A DNA stretch of 41,268 nucleotides from a phage. The notes beneath the pieces are model-generated. The model searched no databases. It was given only the letters and a program-made list of their open reading frames with translations, and was not told where the DNA came from. The DNA lies in the sequence record PX216937.1; one strand, 5' to 3'. The translations under genes were made by a program, and so were the position numbers. Within the stretch, counting starts at the first letter, position 1. The number at the start of each line of letters is the position of its first letter. Below are positions 22,287 through 41,268 of this stretch, piece by piece.

Positions 22287-22373
22287 TTACACACTCTTAG
22301 CTATAAATGCAGCCCACACCATAGAGAAGGCTACGGCTGTGAACATCACGAGCGCAACTGTTCCGGCGACCAT
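22287..22373 (-). CDS. Possible small hydrophobic protein (28 aa, MVAGTVALVMFTAVAFSMVWAAFIAKSV), gene 6.3 position
   Basis: ATG with AAGGAGA 7 nt upstream, overlapping the 3' end of gene 6 in another frame. T7 has a small gene 6.3 here. Not in the ORF track because of size. Confidence 0.35.
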   Translation of the reverse strand: MVAGTVALVMFTAVAFSMVWAAFIAKSV

Positions 22374-23260
22374 AGGTAAATCTCCTTGTCGATAAAGTTG
22401 TACTCTTCGAAACGCAGGATGCGAGCCATCTGGCCCTGCTTAATGATTTCCTGCTCGGTCATCCCAGCTTTCGCGCCAAGTGTCACAATGGCTTCCCATA
22501 GGGTTCGCTCACCAATGTCAACCTTTTTCCATTCGAGAACTGTCTGTCCCTTACGAGCACCAGACTTGAAAGTTTTCTCAACCTGTTCAAAGGCATATGG
22601 GTTCTCCAGCCACTCAGCGGTAGTCTCTCCCCAGCCCGGAATGCCACCATAGCCATCTGTCAAGTCACCTTTAATGGTCTGATAGATGTGCCAGTAGTCG
22701 GCAGTCGTTTGGTCTTGAGTCAAGATGTTACCAGTAGTGCACCACAAGAAGTCACAATCAGGGATGGTCTTAAAGTCCTTATCACAGGAGACCAGCACAG
22801 CCTTATTGAAACCAAAATGTTTAGCACCAGACCCAATGATTCCCATTACGTCATCACCCTCTAAGCGAGGCTCAAGGATAGACGTCCAGTCCTCACAGGC
22901 TTGAACACGCTCGATGAACGCACGGTAGCCTACAGGCTTACGGGATGCCTTACGGTTCTCCTTGTAGGTAGGGTCCACCAGTTCCTTACGCCAGTTCACA
23001 GAGTCAGTGAAGGCCAATACGATAGGCGCATCACGCCAAGCCTTCTTACGACCAGCATAGGACTTGATGGAGTCTACCAGAATGTTCCACGCTTTCCCGT
23101 GGTCACACTCTAACGACCAGCAGTCATCTCCCCAGTCGGTTTCTACTTCACTTGCTGCCATTGCCTGAAAGACAAGCCAGTCACCGTCCATCACTAGAAC
23201 ACCTTTGTCGGATTTACCTTGGCGAAGTTCATAATATTGTTTAAGAGTTAAAGCAGCCAT
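22346..23260 (-). CDS. 6: 5'-3' exonuclease (gp6)
   Basis: Start at the internal Met (MAALTLKQYYELR...); VMDGDWLVFQAM, APIVLAFTDSVNWRKELVDP, CDKDFKTIP, CDFLWCTTGNILTQ and AKAGMTE.IIKQGQMARILRF match recalled T7 gp6. Confidence 0.95.
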   Translation of the reverse strand: MAALTLKQYYELRQGKSDKGVLVMDGDWLVFQAMAASEVETDWGDDCWSLECDHGKAWNILVDSIKSYAGRKKAWRDAPIVLAFTDSVNWRKELVDPTYKENRKASRKPVGYRAFIERVQACEDWTSILEPRLEGDDVMGIIGSGAKHFGFNKAVLVSCDKDFKTIPDCDFLWCTTGNILTQDQTTADYWHIYQTIKGDLTDGYGGIPGWGETTAEWLENPYAFEQVEKTFKSGARKGQTVLEWKKVDIGERTLWEAIVTLGAKAGMTEQEIIKQGQMARILRFEEYNFIDKEIYLWSPEQLRS

Positions 23261-23261
23261 G

Positions 23262-23648
23262 TTAGTCCTCCACATGTTGATATGATTTGTAGTTCCTGAT
23301 AGCTAGAACGCCCTTGTGATCAATGCCATAATCAGCACCAACCTTGCGGGAACTTCTTGAGTCCTTACGGATAGCTCTCACCTGTTCATCAGTCAGCTTG
23401 GCCTTTGAGTGTCTACCGCGTGTCACGCAGTCCATCACATTGTCCCGCTGGGTTCCCAACTCAAGGTGTTCAGGGTTGACGCACAAAGGGTTATCGCACT
23501 TGTGGCGAACCACAAGCCCATCAGGGATAGCCCCAAAGGTTTGAGTGTATACCAAACGATGTGCAGCCCACTTAACTCCATCAACCTGAATCTGACCATA
23601 GCCACGGCCCGTTGTGTAGCCCGTCCAGTTAATACACTCAGTAACCAT
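23262..23648 (-). CDS. HNH endonuclease (homing-endonuclease-like), at the T7 gene 5.9 position
   Basis: Start at an internal Met whose ATG overlaps the gp5.7 stop (TAATG). Contains ...GYGQIQVDGVKWAAHRLVY...VVRHKCDNPLCVNPEHLELGTQRDN..., a typical HNH signature. The track's 147-aa start overlaps gp5.7. Confidence 0.8.
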   Translation of the reverse strand: MVTECINWTGYTTGRGYGQIQVDGVKWAAHRLVYTQTFGAIPDGLVVRHKCDNPLCVNPEHLELGTQRDNVMDCVTRGRHSKAKLTDEQVRAIRKDSRSSRKVGADYGIDHKGVLAIRNYKSYQHVED

Positions 23649-23857
23649 TAGACACAACCTCCCATCTTCTTCAGGAAACGGACACCAGCGCCTGTTACTT
23701 CCCAAGCGCCAGCATTACGCCCATCAACCGATAGGCAAGAGATATGGCCACGACTCGCAGCCTCAGCCACCAGTGACGCATTGTTGCGCACATAGTTCGA
23801 CTGAAAGGTCTTAGGGCAGCTTTTGATAGCCGCCAGTACACGTAGATAATCACCCAT
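23648..23857 (-). CDS. 5.7: gp5.7
   Basis: 69 aa, MGDYLRVLAAIKSCPKTFQSNYVRNNASLVAEAASRGHISC...; near-identical to recalled T7 gp5.7. Confidence 0.9.
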   Translation of the reverse strand: MGDYLRVLAAIKSCPKTFQSNYVRNNASLVAEAASRGHISCLSVDGRNAGAWEVTGAGVRFLKKMGGCV

Positions 23858-24150
23858 TACTTCACCTCGCGAATAGTTGCAGGTGCAAACTTAATGCCCT
23901 CTCCGTTGTGCTCAATGCCCATCTCACGGATTTCATTACGAATGCCCTGCTTAACAGCAAAGGCAACAACACCATCGGCACCATGAGTAAGAGCCTGTAC
24001 GAGTAACTCTTTGTCCTGTGCACTTACGAACTCACCATCACGAACGCTGCGAGCCAAATCTAAGATGCGTTCCTTAATCATATCCTCAGTCTCAGAGTCA
24101 ACCTTTACGGTCATTTCGAATGATACTTTAAAACGTTTAGTAATAGCCAT
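23857..24150 (-). CDS. 5.5: gp5.5 (H-NS-binding protein in T7)
   Basis: 97 aa, MAITKRFKVSFEMTVK...SPATIREV-type ends; size and position match T7 gp5.5. Confidence 0.8.
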   Translation of the reverse strand: MAITKRFKVSFEMTVKVDSETEDMIKERILDLARSVRDGEFVSAQDKELLVQALTHGADGVVAFAVKQGIRNEIREMGIEHNGEGIKFAPATIREVK

Positions 24151-24472
24151 GATATTTCTCCTTTGCTTCTAAGGTGATGACCTTCCGTTCTCGGTTAGTC
24201 TTGATTATATGTTCCCTCTTAGGGATACATTGTAGGTGCTCTATGTTACAGCACCCGCGATTCAGGCATAGATGGTCTATCTCATACCCTTCTGGTATCT
24301 TTCCGTGCCTTAACTCCCACACGAATCTGTGAAACATAAAGGCAAACTTAGTACCCTTTCGGGAAGACCCTATGCTATACCGGAAGTATCCATCTTGGTT
24401 CCGCTTATGGGAGACGCAGACAATACATCCAGTCGGCATGGTGTGAAACCTGAGCGTGGCAACGCCTCCCAT
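24137..24472 (-). CDS. 5.3: HNH endonuclease (gp5.3-like)
   Basis: 111 aa with H...YEIDHLCLNRGCCNIEHLQCIPKREH, a classic HNH/zinc-binding motif; T7 gp5.3 is also HNH-like at this position. Confidence 0.8.
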   Translation of the reverse strand: MGGVATLRFHTMPTGCIVCVSHKRNQDGYFRYSIGSSRKGTKFAFMFHRFVWELRHGKIPEGYEIDHLCLNRGCCNIEHLQCIPKREHIIKTNRERKVITLEAKEKYHGYY

Positions 24473-24483
24473 AGTCTACCTCC

Positions 24484-26622
24484 TTAGTGACATACCGCCC
24501 AATTCGGACCCATCTTTCCTTCAGTATCTAACTGACACCGGAAGTTAAAGTGGTCGCCTACCCAGCGCATAGCCTGTTGGGATACTTCGATTACAACTTT
24601 GGCAATCTCTTCTGTACGGCAAGCAAGCTGTTGCTCATCGTGAATCCACCCCATGAGGCAGAAGTCACCATCCCAGCCATGTTTGTAGCCCATCTCAAGG
24701 AGCATCTCTTCTGTCTTAACAATCCACAGTTTACAAATCAGAGCACCAGCAGACTGCAACAAGGTGTTCAACGCAGCGTGAGGACTACGGACGTGTACTT
24801 TACGACCATCCAAGCCACGAACCCAACGACGTTTCCAAGTTACTTTCTGTTCCCCGCCAACCCACTTAGAGTCCTTGACGAGTGTCCCTGTGATTGCTTC
24901 ACGTAACGCAGCAATAGCCGGAGTTTGCTCAAGGAAGTTCTTGATGAGTCGCTTACCGTCTTCGGCAGTACCACCAACAATCTGTCCAATCTTCGCAGCA
25001 CCAGCACCATAGAGGAACCCATAGATAAACGTCTTAGCGTTATCACGAGTAGGCAGACCAGCAGCCAATTGGTTCTTCGTATGGATGTCACCAGTGAGGA
25101 TAGTCTCAACGTACTCACCCTCATCATAACGATACATGAAGTGGCCCAAGCAGCGTAGCTCAAGGCCGGACGCATCCACACCAACTTGAATCCAAGGGTC
25201 TCCGATATAGCAAACTTCACCGTCGATAACCACCTTCTTCTTGTTATGCTCAGCACCGAAAGCAGCACGGCAAGGTTCACCATATGCAGCACGGATTGAA
25301 GGCACCTGTGCCACGTTAGGGAAGCTATGGGTTGCACGTCCAGTTACCGCACCGTTCGGGTTAACGCTTCCGTGAATACGACCATCATCTCCAATCATTC
25401 GGAGCCAGCCGTTATCACCTTCAGCAACCTGACCGATACGCTTCTGAATCATAAGGTATTCTTTAATCAACTCAATGCAACGCTGTGCATCCGGGTCGTC
25501 TACCTTAACGTGCTCTAAGACCTCATCGTCTACCTTTGGTGCACCACTAGGAGTGAACTCAACGGGCACCCAGCCAGCTTTGGTAAGCACACGGGTGATG
25601 TGGTCTCGGCTCGCAGGGTTAAACACAACGTGCTCAACCGGAGTATACGGAGCACCCTCAACGTAATCGCGGGTATCCAACTCACACGGTTCTAAGCCTT
25701 CACGTTGCTTCTTGTTCTTAGGCTTCTTAAAGATTCCACCCTGTTTCGGGTACTTCACACGAGGATACTTGGTGAGCGGCTTTCCGGTACGAGGATGCCT
25801 GAATGCTTCAGTACCGCCCTTAGCGGAGTACCATGAGCCAAACGTATTGGTTAACTCTACGAGTAGCTCACCACGTCTGCCAGCGAGTTCTGCGTAGAGA
25901 TTCTCCAAGGACTTGATGTCAATAGGAAAACCGTTACGTTCCATCTTAGCTAACAACCATGCAGCATCATGTTCCAGTTTGACAGCCTCAATGCTACCAT
26001 TCCAGAAACGGTCTGCTTCTGTGCTTCCAGCGGGTGTCTCGTTAGGGAAATAGAAAGTGTTACTACACAGTTTCTCAAAGAGTGCCTTGGTGACTACAAC
26101 GTCTTGAACGTTATATTCCATCATGTCTTCATTGAAGAACAGCCACTCCATCCCGTCTTCGTAGTCATCACCAGACTCTTCCAGTGACTTCTTAAAGTCG
26201 TCCTTGTACTCACCCTTCATTTCGCCTAAGCGGTAGCCCCATGCTTCCAGAGCGTGAGACCCAAAGCGACTACCCGGTAGCTTGCCAGCACGGAGCAGCC
26301 CAGCATCGGTGTCTTTGATGTTAGAGTAAATCAGTCGGGACATCACTAGGGTGTCCAAGACGTTCTCTTTCGGGAACTTAACGTCGCGGCCTAATAGTTT
26401 CTTGGCGAGCAACTCAATTACCGGGATGTCATACTTGTGACCGTTGTGGAACACAATGAGACCACCGCGAGCAACCTCAGCTTCGAGAGCATCAATGTAT
26501 GCCCCAAAGTCATCAGGTCGATAACGGATGTACTGGTCAGTTGTGTAGTCGTAAGTCACCGCACAGTGAAATTGACTAACGTTGTGCAGCAACCCGTTTG
26601 TTTCGATGTCGGATAGTAACAT
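24484..26622 (-). CDS. 5: DNA polymerase (gp5), family A with 3'-5' exonuclease domain
   Basis: 712 aa (T7 gp5 is 704); begins MLLSDIETNGLL (exonuclease Exo I motif DIE); synteny after gene 4. Confidence 0.97.
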   Translation of the reverse strand: MLLSDIETNGLLHNVSQFHCAVTYDYTTDQYIRYRPDDFGAYIDALEAEVARGGLIVFHNGHKYDIPVIELLAKKLLGRDVKFPKENVLDTLVMSRLIYSNIKDTDAGLLRAGKLPGSRFGSHALEAWGYRLGEMKGEYKDDFKKSLEESGDDYEDGMEWLFFNEDMMEYNVQDVVVTKALFEKLCSNTFYFPNETPAGSTEADRFWNGSIEAVKLEHDAAWLLAKMERNGFPIDIKSLENLYAELAGRRGELLVELTNTFGSWYSAKGGTEAFRHPRTGKPLTKYPRVKYPKQGGIFKKPKNKKQREGLEPCELDTRDYVEGAPYTPVEHVVFNPASRDHITRVLTKAGWVPVEFTPSGAPKVDDEVLEHVKVDDPDAQRCIELIKEYLMIQKRIGQVAEGDNGWLRMIGDDGRIHGSVNPNGAVTGRATHSFPNVAQVPSIRAAYGEPCRAAFGAEHNKKKVVIDGEVCYIGDPWIQVGVDASGLELRCLGHFMYRYDEGEYVETILTGDIHTKNQLAAGLPTRDNAKTFIYGFLYGAGAAKIGQIVGGTAEDGKRLIKNFLEQTPAIAALREAITGTLVKDSKWVGGEQKVTWKRRWVRGLDGRKVHVRSPHAALNTLLQSAGALICKLWIVKTEEMLLEMGYKHGWDGDFCLMGWIHDEQQLACRTEEIAKVVIEVSQQAMRWVGDHFNFRCQLDTEGKMGPNWAVCH

Positions 26623-26630
26623 TGTGTTTA

Positions 26631-26757
26631 CTCCTTAAGCGGATTGATAAGTGGGAACAGAGTGTCTGTCCCATTAGTGAGTTGTACTGATTGCTCAGAA
26701 GTCTTGACCATCGTCTTCTGGTTCCCAGCCGCTATCTCCATCTCCTTCATCTTCAGG
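26631..26757. repeat. 127-bp exact duplicate of 27911..28037 (gene 4 3' end plus phi4.3 promoter and Shine-Dalgarno), inserted directly upstream of gene 5
   Basis: Base-by-base comparison: ctccttaagcggattgataagtgggaacagagtgtctgtcccattagtgagttgtactgattgctcagaagtcttgaccatcgtcttctggttcccagccgctatctccatctccttcatcttcagg occurs at both sites. Confidence 0.9.
26666..26688 (-). promoter_or_regulatory. Duplicated copy of the phi4.3-type promoter (AGTACAACTCACTAATGGGACAG) about 45 bp upstream of the gene 5 start
   Basis: Identical to the promoter at 27946..27968; lies within the duplicated segment. Confidence 0.7.
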
Positions 26758-26868
26758 ATCAGGTCGATAACGGATGTACTGGTCAGTTGTGTAGTCGTAA
26801 GTCACCGCACAGTGAAATTGACTAACGTTGTGCAGCAACCCGTTTGTTTCGATGTCGGATAGTAACAT
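26696..26868 (-). pseudogene. Truncated second copy of the gene 5 5' end (first 37 codons plus RBS; exact repeat 26758..26884 of 26512..26638) fused in frame to the duplicated gene 4 tail (20 codons); potential 57-aa ORF
   Basis: 26758..26884 is identical to 26512..26638. Reading from the duplicated ATG gives MLLSDIETNGLLHNVSQFHCAVTYDYTTDQYIRYRPD followed in frame by [20 protein letters not shown] and a stop. Below the track's size cut-off. Confidence 0.6.
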
Positions 26869-26887
26869 TGTGTTTACTCCTTAAAGT

Positions 26888-27286
26888 TTAACGATGGGTG
26901 TATCCCATATAGTCTTTCGCGTTGATTACCTTCAGGTTCTCAGCTTTGATTCCAACGTTGTTACTGGTCACTAAGGTTCCATTAGGAGCAATGCGGGACA
27001 CTCGTGAGCACCAGCAGATGTTGCCAGCGACCGTGCGCACGTACCACAGAGAGGATGTCTCAGTTGATGCGCAGAAGTCACCTGCCTTAATGTGGGTCAT
27101 GGTGTCCTTATCGAACAGCTTGGTGTTTGCCTTGGCAGGTTTCACCCATTGACCACGAGAGCGAGTCCACCCTAAGTTCTTCAGGATGTGTATCGCAGAG
27201 TCACGAGCACATTCATACTCTTTGACATCAGCCAGTTCAGCTTGCAGCTTAGAGATTTCAGCTTCGATTACATTACGATTACGCAT
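26888..27286 (-). CDS. 4.7: Hypothetical protein at the gene 4.7 position
   Basis: 132 aa (T7 gp4.7 is 135); its ATG directly follows the phi4.7-like promoter. Identity by synteny and size only. Confidence 0.6.
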   Translation of the reverse strand: MRNRNVIEAEISKLQAELADVKEYECARDSAIHILKNLGWTRSRGQWVKPAKANTKLFDKDTMTHIKAGDFCASTETSSLWYVRTVAGNICWCSRVSRIAPNGTLVTSNNVGIKAENLKVINAKDYMGYTHR

Positions 27287-27293
27287 AGTGTTG

Positions 27294-27316
27294 TTCTCCC
27301 ATTAGTGAGTTGAATA
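27294..27316 (-). promoter_or_regulatory. Phage RNAP promoter (phi4.7-like), TATTCAACTCACTAATGGGAGAA
   Basis: Class-II-like variant of the promoter consensus immediately upstream of the 4.7-position ORF. Confidence 0.7.
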
Positions 27317-27319
27317 GAT

Positions 27320-27378
27320 TTCATACAAAAGTTAATCACGAAGGCCACCCGGAGATGACCTTTAGTTTAACTCTTTTA
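27320..27378 (-). promoter_or_regulatory. RNase III-type processing hairpin (R4.7-like)
   Basis: aaagttaatcacgaaggccacccggagatgacctttagtttaactc is one of a family of related imperfect hairpins (also 33741..33810, 34270..34400, 39787..39840, 40210..40265), placed between genes as T7 R-sites are. Confidence 0.5.
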
Positions 27379-27678
27379 GATTCCAGACTTCGCAGACAGC
27401 ACCATGCCCTCTTCGCCAGCCACTTTGGACAGCAGGAGTTCACGAGTCTTGTCTTCACCTACAGCCACAGTAGCAGCTACAGCAACGGAAGCCAGCAGAC
27501 GACCTGCCTGTGTGTCATCCAAAGTTACACGCTGTGTGTGCGCCTTGGTGGACTTATGGTCTTTCCAACGGTAGACCAGAGTGACCTTGCCATTACGGAC
27601 GTTGATGTGCACTCGACGAGCATACTGGTCGATGGTGTCGGACAGACGGATCGTGTTGCCGGGGAATTTAATAGCCAT
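27376..27678 (-). CDS. 4.5: Hypothetical protein at the gene 4.5 position
   Basis: 100-aa ORF between 4.3 and the R4.7-like hairpin; synteny only. Confidence 0.55.
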   Translation of the reverse strand: MAIKFPGNTIRLSDTIDQYARRVHINVRNGKVTLVYRWKDHKSTKAHTQRVTLDDTQAGRLLASVAVAATVAVGEDKTRELLLSKVAGEEGMVLSAKSGI

Positions 27679-27691
27679 AATGTGTCACTCC

Positions 27692-27904
27692 TTACAGGAA
27701 GAATTTGTTGAGGTCGGTTGCTTTAGCTGCAATCTTAGCAGCAGACGTTACGCCAGCACTTGCATCTTCAGACAGCAGACGGGCCTGTTTAGCCAAGCGT
27801 TGAGCCTGTTCAGCGTCCTTACGTGCCTTGTCGTTCAGACGTTTAGCTTCACGGAAGTACATTTTGACTACCAGCTTACCAAGAGTATTGATAAATTTAA
27901 ACAT
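27692..27904 (-). CDS. 4.3: gp4.3-like small protein (70 aa from the internal Met MFKFINTLGKLVVKMYFREAKRLNDKARKDAEQ...)
   Basis: Internal Met has AAGGAG 7 nt upstream and lies downstream of the phi4.3 promoter; the track's upstream extension overlaps the promoter and the gene 4 end. Confidence 0.65.
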   Translation of the reverse strand: MFKFINTLGKLVVKMYFREAKRLNDKARKDAEQAQRLAKQARLLSEDASAGVTSAAKIAAKATDLNKFFL

Positions 27905-27945
27905 TGTGAGTCTCCTTAAGCGGATTGATAAGTGGGAACAGAGTG

Positions 27946-27968
27946 TCTGTCCCATTAGTGAGTTGTAC
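27946..27968 (-). promoter_or_regulatory. Phage RNAP promoter (phi4.3-like), AGTACAACTCACTAATGGGACAG
   Basis: Promoter-like 23-mer between the gene 4 stop and the gene 4.3 start. Confidence 0.7.
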
Positions 27969-27975
27969 TGATTGC

Positions 27976-29785
<1,810 letters not shown>

Positions 29786-34407: not shown

Positions 34408-34430
34408 TTTCCCATTAGTGAGTCGTATTG
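34408..34430 (-). promoter_or_regulatory. Phage RNAP promoter (phi1.1B-like), CAATACGACTCACTAATGGGAAA
   Basis: Promoter match; the stop codon and last five codons (DNTTH) of the upstream ORF are encoded within it. Confidence 0.7.
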
Positions 34431-34972
34431 TCTGCAACCTTACGTGCAATCTCAATGCGACCAGCTACGTCTTTCTTATAATAGGTGAACTCTTTGCGCT
34501 CACCATCAGTGCACGTCTGTGTCAGCAGGTAGCGGTCCGATTGTTCTTTCCAGTGCAAACATGTAACCTCTTTGCCGCAAGACCCTATGCCTAGCTTGAA
34601 CTCAGTGCGCTTCCATCCAGCATCCGGGATGTGAGCAGTAAACTTGATAGACGTGATGTCACTGTGAGTGTACTCACGGATGGTACTCTTTGCCTCTTTA
34701 AGTTCCTTGCGGTACTCCACTGCCTCAGCGCGTAGACGCTCAATGAGTTCTCGTTGGTTCGACATGTCATATTGTTGTTCGAACTCTAAGGTACGGATTC
34801 GACCAGCCAGTTCCTGCTTCTCTCGCCATCCGTCTTCAAGTCTCTCTTTGAGTGCGTGAGAGTTCTTCTCTTCTTTGATTAGCTTGGTGAGAAATACCTT
34901 TGAGCGATTGTAGTATGTTGCTGCAAGAATGGTTGCCACGAGAGCGCCTACTGAAGTGATGAAAGTAAACAT
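34415..34972 (-). CDS. Hypothetical membrane-anchored protein with coiled-coil and Cys-rich C-terminal region (gene 1.05 position, between phi1.1A and phi1.1B)
   Basis: 185 aa from the Met preceded by AAGAGGAAA: N-terminal hydrophobic helix (FTFITSVGALVATILAATYY), charged heptad-like middle, C-terminal C-x6-C-x2-H...C-x3-E. No T7 counterpart that I recognise. Confidence 0.6.
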   Translation of the reverse strand: MFTFITSVGALVATILAATYYNRSKVFLTKLIKEEKNSHALKERLEDGWREKQELAGRIRTLEFEQQYDMSNQRELIERLRAEAVEYRKELKEAKSTIREYTHSDITSIKFTAHIPDAGWKRTEFKLGIGSCGKEVTCLHWKEQSDRYLLTQTCTDGERKEFTYYKKDVAGRIEIARKVADNTTH

Positions 34973-35032
34973 GATTATGTTTCCTCTTAAAGTTAAACTT
35001 AAAGTTATCTTAAAGTAGGGAAACCCCAAGGG

Positions 35033-40959: not shown

Positions 40960-41230
40960 GAAGGTTAACATAAGGATAGGCAGCCATAAGGATAGACATA
41001 AGGTTAGCGTAGCTAATAAGAGGTGACATAAGGTGTTAACTCTAAGAGGAAACATAAGGTGATTACAGATAGGGACACAGAGAGGACTACATATAGTGGT
41101 CATAAGGTCCCACTAAGCACTACATCTAGTGGTAACACCCAAAGTTAACCCAATGTCTCACATAAGGATTGACATTAAGTAAACCATAAGTTAACATAAG
41201 GGGTGGCACTCTTTGGGTGGAACTGAAGGA
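40960..41230. repeat. Array of CATAAGG heptamers (about 9 copies, with CTAAGAG variants) at the genome end; similar copies at 100..350
   Basis: Repeated acataagg/ccataagg/tcataagg at irregular spacing across the terminal repeat and adjacent unique sequence at both genome ends. Confidence 0.6.
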
Positions 41231-41268
41231 GGCCATAGGGGGGAACTCGGTGTGTATGAACTATGAGA
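41071..41268. repeat. Direct terminal repeat (copy at the phage left end); identical to 1..198
   Basis: Exact 198-bp identity with the window start. Confidence 0.85.

Follow-up and report, generated by a model that had tools for sequence, protein, structure and literature searches.

Two putative HNH homing endonuclease genes around genes 5.5 and 5.7 of a Berlinvirus-type phage, one of them in the place of gene 5.9

The DNA considered here, called the window throughout, is the whole 41,268-nt sequence of record PX216937.1, which is the complete genome of a T7-like phage with all of its genes on the minus strand. By DNA similarity it is a member of the Berlinvirus group of the Studiervirinae, and its closest record is Escherichia phage P1338, with ~96% identity across the region of interest. 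Two small open reading frames (ORFs) between genes 5 and 6, named HNH-A and HNH-B, bracket genes 5.5 and 5.7, and HNH-B sits in the position of gene 5.9. Both genes are of a well-known kind, the free-standing HNH homing endonuclease genes (HEGs) of T7-like phages, and do not represent a new kind of system. With a probability of about 0.8, both are selfish HEGs, of which HNH-A is of the T3 gene 5.3 type and acts on motif C of the DNA polymerase gene, and HNH-B came in with a conversion tract that replaced gene 5.9.

Gene order between genes 5 and 6

The features of the region are, in coding order:

24484-26622, minus strand: gene 5, DNA polymerase, the first gene of the region
24484-24723, minus strand: 3′ 240 nt of gene 5 that travel with HNH-A, delimited by a break in identity and containing an altered motif C
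24625-24663, minus strand: altered motif C (FCLMGWIHDEQQL), the presumed HNH-A target made resistant
24137-24472, minus strand: HNH-A, 111 aa, between the gene 5 stop and gene 5.5
23857-24150, minus strand: gene 5.5, H-NS inhibitor homolog (Pfam Phage_T7_55, E=1.9e-19), an allele of the P1338/FE44 type
23648-23857, minus strand: gene 5.7, recognized by its sequence; the protein is 100% identical in several Yersinia phages
23262-23648, minus strand: HNH-B, 128 aa, in the gene 5.9 position between genes 5.7 and 6
22346-23260, minus strand: gene 6, 5′-3′ exonuclease of 304 aa with its ATG at 23260 (Pfam 5_3_exonuc_N, E=6.9e-07, under the gathering cut-off)
23054-23260, minus strand: 5′ end of gene 6 apparently co-converted with HNH-B, minimum tract as marked by L065-type sites (see below)

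The junctions are clean. The stop codon of gene 5.7 and the ATG of HNH-B overlap in TAATG, a GGGAGG within gene 5.7 forms the Shine-Dalgarno sequence for HNH-B, and the TAA stop of HNH-B is followed by a single base, C, and then by the gene 6 ATG. The final 14 nt of HNH-A overlap the start of gene 5.5. Upstream starts listed for HNH-B (TTG 23705) and gene 6 (ATG 23275) are unused in homologs, and the gene 6 homologs annotated as exonuclease begin at the ATG equivalent to 23260. A sequence-only reading of the window had already given the same coordinates for both HNH ORFs and the same TAATG junction. Its assignment of HNH-A to the “5.3 position” is correct in terms of T3, whose gp5.3 matches HNH-A, and incorrect in terms of T7, whose gp5.3 is not an HNH protein. 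HNH-A as a homolog of T7 gp5.3 is rejected, as the best tblastn match of T7 gp5.3 (E=0.19) lies in gene 6 and not in HNH-A.

Each record of the phage collection covers at most 83% of the 2.3-kb segment of the window, and with respect to these records its combination of alleles is new. The bracketing by two HNH genes is not unique to the window, as phage pO91 carries an HNH-A-type gene together with HNH-B.

HNH-A and HNH-B proteins

Both proteins are assigned to the Pfam family HNH_3 (PF13392). HNH-A matches with E=6.9e-18 and 64.5 bits and HNH-B with E=1.9e-16 and 59.8 bits, compared to a gathering cut-off of 24.8 bits, and the two share phrog_1872 (“endonuclease”) as their best PHROG. The two clear HNH signatures that had been read from the letters alone are therefore borne out. 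Similarly, the proposal that they are homing-type enzymes agrees with the BLASTP comparison, in which the matches of both proteins include HNH endonucleases of T7-like phages, either free-standing or carried by introns. The ratio of nonsynonymous to synonymous substitution rates (dN/dS) against relatives is 0.05-0.18 across both genes, HNH-B included, and 0.08-0.16 for HNH-A. This purifying selection identifies them as maintained protein-coding genes and not as chance ORFs.

HNH-B has a predicted architecture of a His-Me finger followed by a C-terminal helix-turn-helix. All residues that are invariant among 48 homologs are retained (H49, C51, C56, H61, G65, and N70). The AF2 model built from the 48-homolog alignment has a mean pLDDT of 86 and contains strands and helices, with three more helices at the C terminus. 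Its best folds in the PDB are I-HmuI, then I-PpoI and the Smad MH1 His-Me finger, all of them weak matches with E of 0.02 or more (E 0.02-0.09 and TM 0.3-0.44 for I-HmuI and I-PpoI), and a beta-beta-alpha metal fold is a candidate assignment for HNH-B. A sequence search of the PDB returned no match for HNH-A or HNH-B. I-HmuI (PDB 1u3e), a nicking HNH homing endonuclease of Bacillus phage SPO1, is the best structural match to the whole model and would share with it the succession of a His-Me finger and a helical DNA-binding part. It differs in being only 23% identical and in being intron-encoded, whereas HNH-B is free-standing.

The closest annotated relative of HNH-B is gp28 of Erwinia phage FE44 (V419_gp28), a “7.7-like putative homing endonuclease” that is 98% identical and is encoded at the same 5.7/6 junction. 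The proteins gp7.7 of T7 and 13a also combine HNH_3 with a C-terminal helix-turn-helix and are 42-47% identical to HNH-B (42% for T7). They are encoded between genes 7.3 and 8, at another locus and presumably with another target. They belong to paralogous HEG lineages and are not orthologs of HNH-B. Domain, architecture, and relatives suggest that HNH-B is a free-standing HNH homing endonuclease.

Six other HNH/endonuclease queries from relatives detect no further HEG in the window, and the T7 gp5.3 query likewise gives no match. The HEG sets of related phages vary: the window has HNH-A and HNH-B only, P1338 (L010) has HNH-A and an HNH gene after the terminase gene, and FE44 (L011) has a gp2.8-type HNH gene, HNH-B, and a gene annotated as endonuclease VII (gp13.5).

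HNH-A and the end of the polymerase gene

HNH-A is 100% identical to the HNH protein of P1338, 89-94% identical to proteins of Carena, ETEP21B, and S523, and 77.5% identical to T3 gp5.3. Its homolog stands directly after gene 5 in P1338, Carena, ETEP21B, and T3, the genomes examined for this. The HNH motif of HNH-A (DHLCLNRGCCNIEHL) is the same as that of T3 gp5.3 (DHICLNRGCCNVEHL) except for conservative L/I and I/V changes. T3 gp5.3 reportedly acts as a free-standing homing endonuclease on the polymerase gene, where it is said to cut intronless alleles at the position of I-TslI. Both T3 gene 5.3 and I-TslI, which is intron-encoded in phages PhiI and W31, are reported systems from earlier work on T7-like phages.

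A more distant similarity (46-49% identity) connects HNH-A with HNH ORFs that lie within the DNA polymerase genes of K1F and PC192. The polymerase coding sequence of K1F is annotated as two joined pieces. In PC192, an insertion with an HNH ORF falls exactly between WVH and DE of motif C and is read as an intron, presumably a group I intron like those in PhiI and W31. In this Salmonella phage, the interruption is noted at positions 256-1008 of the compared segment (L008), and its HNH ORF is 49% identical to HNH-A.

Genomes without HNH-A offer an empty site for comparison. P1338, Carena, and ETEP21B carry HNH-A, whereas FE44 and the metagenome contig L065 lack it, and in these two the gene 5 stop leads straight into the Shine-Dalgarno sequence and ATG of gene 5.5. 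In the window, the last codons of HNH-A read through the bases of this Shine-Dalgarno sequence and ATG. The neighboring end of gene 5 differs as well. Upstream of about 24723, that is ~240 nt before the gene 5 stop, the window equals FE44 and L065, while from there to the stop it shows 5-15 mismatches per 30 nt against them. Compared to P1338 and Carena, which carry HNH-A, the end of gene 5 is close throughout.

This flank also differs in motif C. The altered form FCLMGWIHDEQQL is found in all four Berlin-type genomes with HNH-A (window, P1338, Carena, and ETEP21B), and the stretch in gene 5 of the window is also written CLMGWIHDEQQL. All five HNH-A-less genomes compared have AYMAWVHDE(I/L)Q(V/I), which is represented in FE44 by AYMAWVHDEIQV. 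T3 and pO91, both with HNH-A, depart from the HNH-A-less form by one and three residues, respectively. The Berlin-type motif is much more altered than that of T3 (AYMAWIHDEIQV).

Taken together, the empty sites, the identity break, and the variant motif C form a trace that fits a homing endonuclease linked to a resistant target allele. The likely target of HNH-A is the coding sequence of motif C (WVHDE), ~150-190 nt upstream of its own insertion point, and HNH-A would be inherited together with the resistant variant of this target. HNH-A is thus best described as a putative HNH homing endonuclease gene that is free-standing and belongs to the same type as T3 gene 5.3.

Occupants of the junction between genes 5.7 and 6

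The HNH-B family is found at many genomic positions across phages (1814 records). Alleles that are at least 75% identical to HNH-B are confined to 10 phage records, compared to 1267 records with gp5.7. These carriers are FE44 (98%), PC192 and PC127 (94.5%), and the Kayfunaviruses pO91, KE05/14/18, Monomax, and Baskent (75-77%). The order 5.7-HNH-B-6 is seen in every carrier of this group that was examined (FE44, PC192, pO91, KE05, and Monomax). An IMG/VR scan with HNH-B yields FE44 as the sole close relative. Metagenome contigs extend the range: the Logan contig L065 encodes an identical protein at the 5.7/6 junction, L066 one with 95% identity, and L068 one with 55% identity. In L067, the homolog (61%) also immediately precedes gene 6, but the gene before it is a different one.

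Other genomes fill the junction differently. An annotated gp5.9 occupies it in P1338, ETEP21B, JSS1, P694, T7, and T3. Carena and K1F have neither gp5.9 nor HNH-B, and their 5.7 stop overlaps the gene 6 ATG. In PC192 and PC127, an in-frame stop and a 3-nt deletion make HNH-B a pseudogene (PC192/L008 1501-1884), which illustrates that HEG copies degenerate in some lineages. The junction is thus polymorphic among close relatives, with gp5.9, HNH-B, an HNH-B pseudogene, or nothing, as the comparison of related genomes proposed earlier was meant to reveal. The view that HNH-B is simply one of the conserved genes of this phage group is rejected on the 10 records against 1267 with gp5.7 and on the pseudogene in one lineage; it is not a core gene. 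Judged by the empty site of K1F, the HNH-B-type HEG of the Kayfunaviruses is a plain insertion and not a replacement of gene 5.9.

Two further observations concern this junction. In Carena (L003), positions 2440-2460 look like the product of a precise deletion of gene 5.9 between two TATGAG repeats, with which 5.9 and gene 6 begin in relatives. In L068 (3001-3440), a Logan contig from SRR30397383, the DNA of both junctions and of the initial ~45 nt of gene 6 is nearly identical to the window, so that the cassette has conserved ends and a divergent interior (55% at the protein level).

A probable conversion tract that carries HNH-B

Breakpoints were located with three-way informative sites between the window, P1338, and L065. 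Genes 5.5-5.7 down to 23667 are of the P1338 type at all but a handful of ~117 informative sites. From 23257 to 23054, the window is of the L065 type at 33 of 33 sites, and from 22915 to 22817, it is again of the P1338 type (13 of 13). The left breakpoint therefore lies at most 17 nt from the HNH-B ATG, where the P1338-type tract ends, and the right breakpoint lies between 23054 and 22915, i.e., 200-345 nt into gene 6. From the start of HNH-B to ~22910, only three differences separate the window from L065, a contig with a very different gene 5.5 and no HNH-A. Nothing in the annotated phage collection exceeds 84-87% identity to the first ~170 nt of gene 6, yet this stretch matches L065.

FE44 shows the TAATG and TAAC-ATG junctions of the window and is devoid of HNH-A. 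Its gene 6 shares the first ~50 nt with the window and then diverges over ~100 nt (26 mismatches in nt 51-150). The cassette allele of the window is of the L065 type, unlike that of FE44.

The simplest reading is that a P1338-like genome with gene 5.9 was converted from an L065-like donor, which would have brought in HNH-B with 200-345 nt of gene 6 and taken out gene 5.9. The replacement of 5.9 by an inserted HEG, which the sequence-only reading had suspected, is upheld by this L065-type tract within a P1338-like, 5.9-bearing backbone. In mechanistic terms, HEGs of this kind sit between phage genes and would spread in mixed infections. The nuclease would cut or nick the HEG-less relative near its empty site, and repair by recombination would then proceed from the HEG-containing genome. 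The 180-nt gene 5.9 located between the flanks would be lost during this conversion.

Two sites are candidates for recognition by HNH-B. The empty sites of K1F and Carena share GGAGGYTGYSTATGAG, a sequence that covers the 5.7 stop together with the following ATG, and the 5.7/5.9 junction of P1338 resembles them. HNH-B may cut at this junction at the end of 5.7, a target proposed from sequence comparison. A cut there would leave almost no tract on the left, and the tract on the right would have to cross gene 5.9 in order to reach homology. The second candidate is the start of gene 6, whose first 36 nt are specific to HNH-B-carrying Berlin-type genomes (MAALTLKQYYEL; MSALTLKQYYEL in PC192), while HNH-B-less genomes have MSALTLNEFYEI or MSAITLKEFYEL. 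These 36 nt could be a second target of HNH-B or an immunity site, and a cut may be placed near GGAGGTTGYGTATGAG or near the gene 6 start.

The arrangement is reminiscent of the free-standing Seg and Mob HEGs of T4, for which intronless homing, marker exclusion, and “HEG islands” have been described (Barth, Dunham & Seed 2023, PMC10448857). As in T4, the HEGs lie by essential DNA-metabolism genes, flanks are co-converted, and a short block of genes is enclosed by two HEGs. In contrast to a T4 HEG island, the genes in between (5.5-5.7) are non-essential and did not travel together with HNH-B. A movement of genes 5.5-5.7 by the two HEGs as one island is not supported in this lineage, as 5.5-5.7 and HNH-A are of the P1338 type and HNH-B and the start of gene 6 are of the L065 type.

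It can be argued instead that both HNH genes are domesticated phage nucleases, used for example in host DNA breakdown, in replication or recombination, or in the exclusion of competitors, which are not mobile at present and whose flanks stem from ordinary recombination. Purifying selection on both ORFs and their translational coupling into the class II DNA-metabolism operon would agree with this, as would the survival of HNH-B alleles down to 55% identity at one site, which is compatible with long residence. Each of the two genes is missing from very close relatives that grow normally, HNH-B has decayed in PC192 and PC127, the recombination breakpoints hug the HNH-B cassette, and variation at the polymerase target site correlates with the presence of HNH-A. 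Domestication is therefore considered unlikely, with a slim chance of being correct.

Several points weigh against selfish homing as the explanation. A mosaic tract could arise by ordinary homologous recombination without any nuclease. HNH-B alleles between 55% and 100% identity at one site also fit long vertical residence in place of repeated homing. The match of the HNH-B model to I-HmuI is weak (E=0.02, TM 0.44). The reported homing activity is that of T3 gp5.3, and homing by either HNH protein of the window phage is a prediction. Selfish homing nevertheless remains the preferred explanation, with nuclease activity, exact target sites, and a homing origin of the tract as its predicted parts.

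Absence of gp5.9 and its consequences

The earlier statement that gene 5.9 was not found is corroborated by tblastn with the gp5.9 proteins of T7, P1338, and ETEP21B, which returned nothing better than E=0.3 across the window. A gp5.9 profile hidden Markov model made from the three proteins gave a best E value of 4.9 when run against every six-frame segment that reaches 20 aa. Neither search reveals a hidden or relocated gp5.9, and this possibility is rejected. With gene 5.9 lost in the conversion, the phage is predicted to make no RecBCD inhibitor of the gp5.9 type.

gp5.9 is a DNA-mimic inhibitor of RecBCD (PMC9836394). It sets off abortive infection by the retron Ec48, and T7 escapers from this defense are changed in gene 5.9 (L23P) (bioRxiv 10.1101/2020.06.21.156273; PMC9836394). 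Gene 5.9 is called non-essential in the T7 and T3 reference records. gp5.9 of the P1338 type occurs in 178 phage records, compared to 1267 with gp5.7, although divergent alleles of the T7 type may have escaped this query. The absence of 5.9 is thus real but not unusual. Its annotation as non-essential and its lack in many relatives weaken the idea, raised from the sequence alone, that this phage deals with RecBCD differently from T7.

Nothing in the window points to a substitute for gp5.9, and HNH-B is not gp5.9-like. One could still imagine that HNH-B has taken over the function of gp5.9, with RecBCD handled by the nuclease or its DNA-binding domain and the swap being adaptive and not selfish. 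The argument for this is positional only: HNH-B fills the exact 5.9 slot, is served by the same Shine-Dalgarno sequence, and is translationally coupled in the same way. However, HNH-B shows no resemblance to gp5.9, nor is it an acidic DNA mimic, the Kayfunavirus HEG inserted where 5.9 never was (the K1F empty site), Carena lives without both genes, and the T7 and T3 records speak against an essential role of 5.9. A functional takeover is consequently highly improbable.

The octamer Chi (GCTGGTGG) occurs five times in the window (1.5 expected; at least five in 3 of 100 shuffles), five times in P1338, and nine times in FE44, which lacks gp5.9. There is no signal of extra Chi sites as a compensation for the loss of 5.9, since the window and the 5.9-bearing P1338 have equal counts; the counts are too small to interpret.

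Another possibility is that the loss of 5.9 was itself selected, as an escape from defenses that sense RecBCD inhibition such as the retron Ec48, and that the HEG was a mere vehicle. The triggering of Ec48 by gp5.9 and the L23P escapers of T7 (PMC9836394) lend it some plausibility, and 5.9 has been lost independently, by a clean deletion in Carena and by HEG replacement. HEG drive alone accounts for the pattern, however, and the Chi count equal to that of P1338 reveals no compensating change in the genome. Selection for the loss has a small but real chance of being the cause.

Other features of the window

The window begins and ends with an exact direct terminal repeat of 198 nt (1-198 = 41071-41268), as expected of a complete T7-like genome, and its orientation is the reverse of the T7 convention.

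Upstream of gene 5 and at its start, two exact direct repeats of 127 nt are found (26512-26638 = 26758-26884; 26631-26757 = 27912-28038). The 246-nt block 26512-26757 (127 + 127 − 8) connects gene 4, at its 3′ end, with the beginning of gene 5 via the 8-nt repeat TTAAGGAG and is absent in P1338 and FE44. It creates a chimeric ORF on the minus strand (26695-26868) with 37 aa of the polymerase N terminus and 20 aa of the gene 4 C terminus. The block is probably a k=127 assembly-graph edge from a variant that deletes the 4.x genes (26885-27911) and was misinserted into the contig.

Downstream of the RNA polymerase gene, a 186-aa ORF (34415-34975, minus strand) matches only PHROGs of unknown function (phrog_8103, E=8e-62). 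It is located within a stretch of ~840 nt that has no counterpart in P1338 or FE44.

Significance for T7-like phages

The window provides a natural example of HEGs that reshuffle T7-like genomes, with breakpoints that can be placed to within a few nucleotides. To the known systems, it adds a well-resolved tract that replaces gene 5.9, the correlation between HNH-A and the variant motif C, and natural gp5.9-null phages. It suggests that an HEG can remove a counter-defense gene, gp5.9, as a side effect of its own spread. More speculatively, and with a low likelihood, HNH-B and gene 5.9 may be mutually exclusive alleles, with a selfish HEG driving the loss of an anti-RecBCD gene through T7-like populations. 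If so, the loss would be tolerated or even favored where hosts sense RecBCD inhibition, e.g., through the retron Ec48. The window phage and its HNH-B-carrying relatives are flagged as natural gp5.9-null phages, which may be used to gauge how far T7-like phages need RecBCD inhibition and how far its loss lets them escape from defenses that guard RecBCD.

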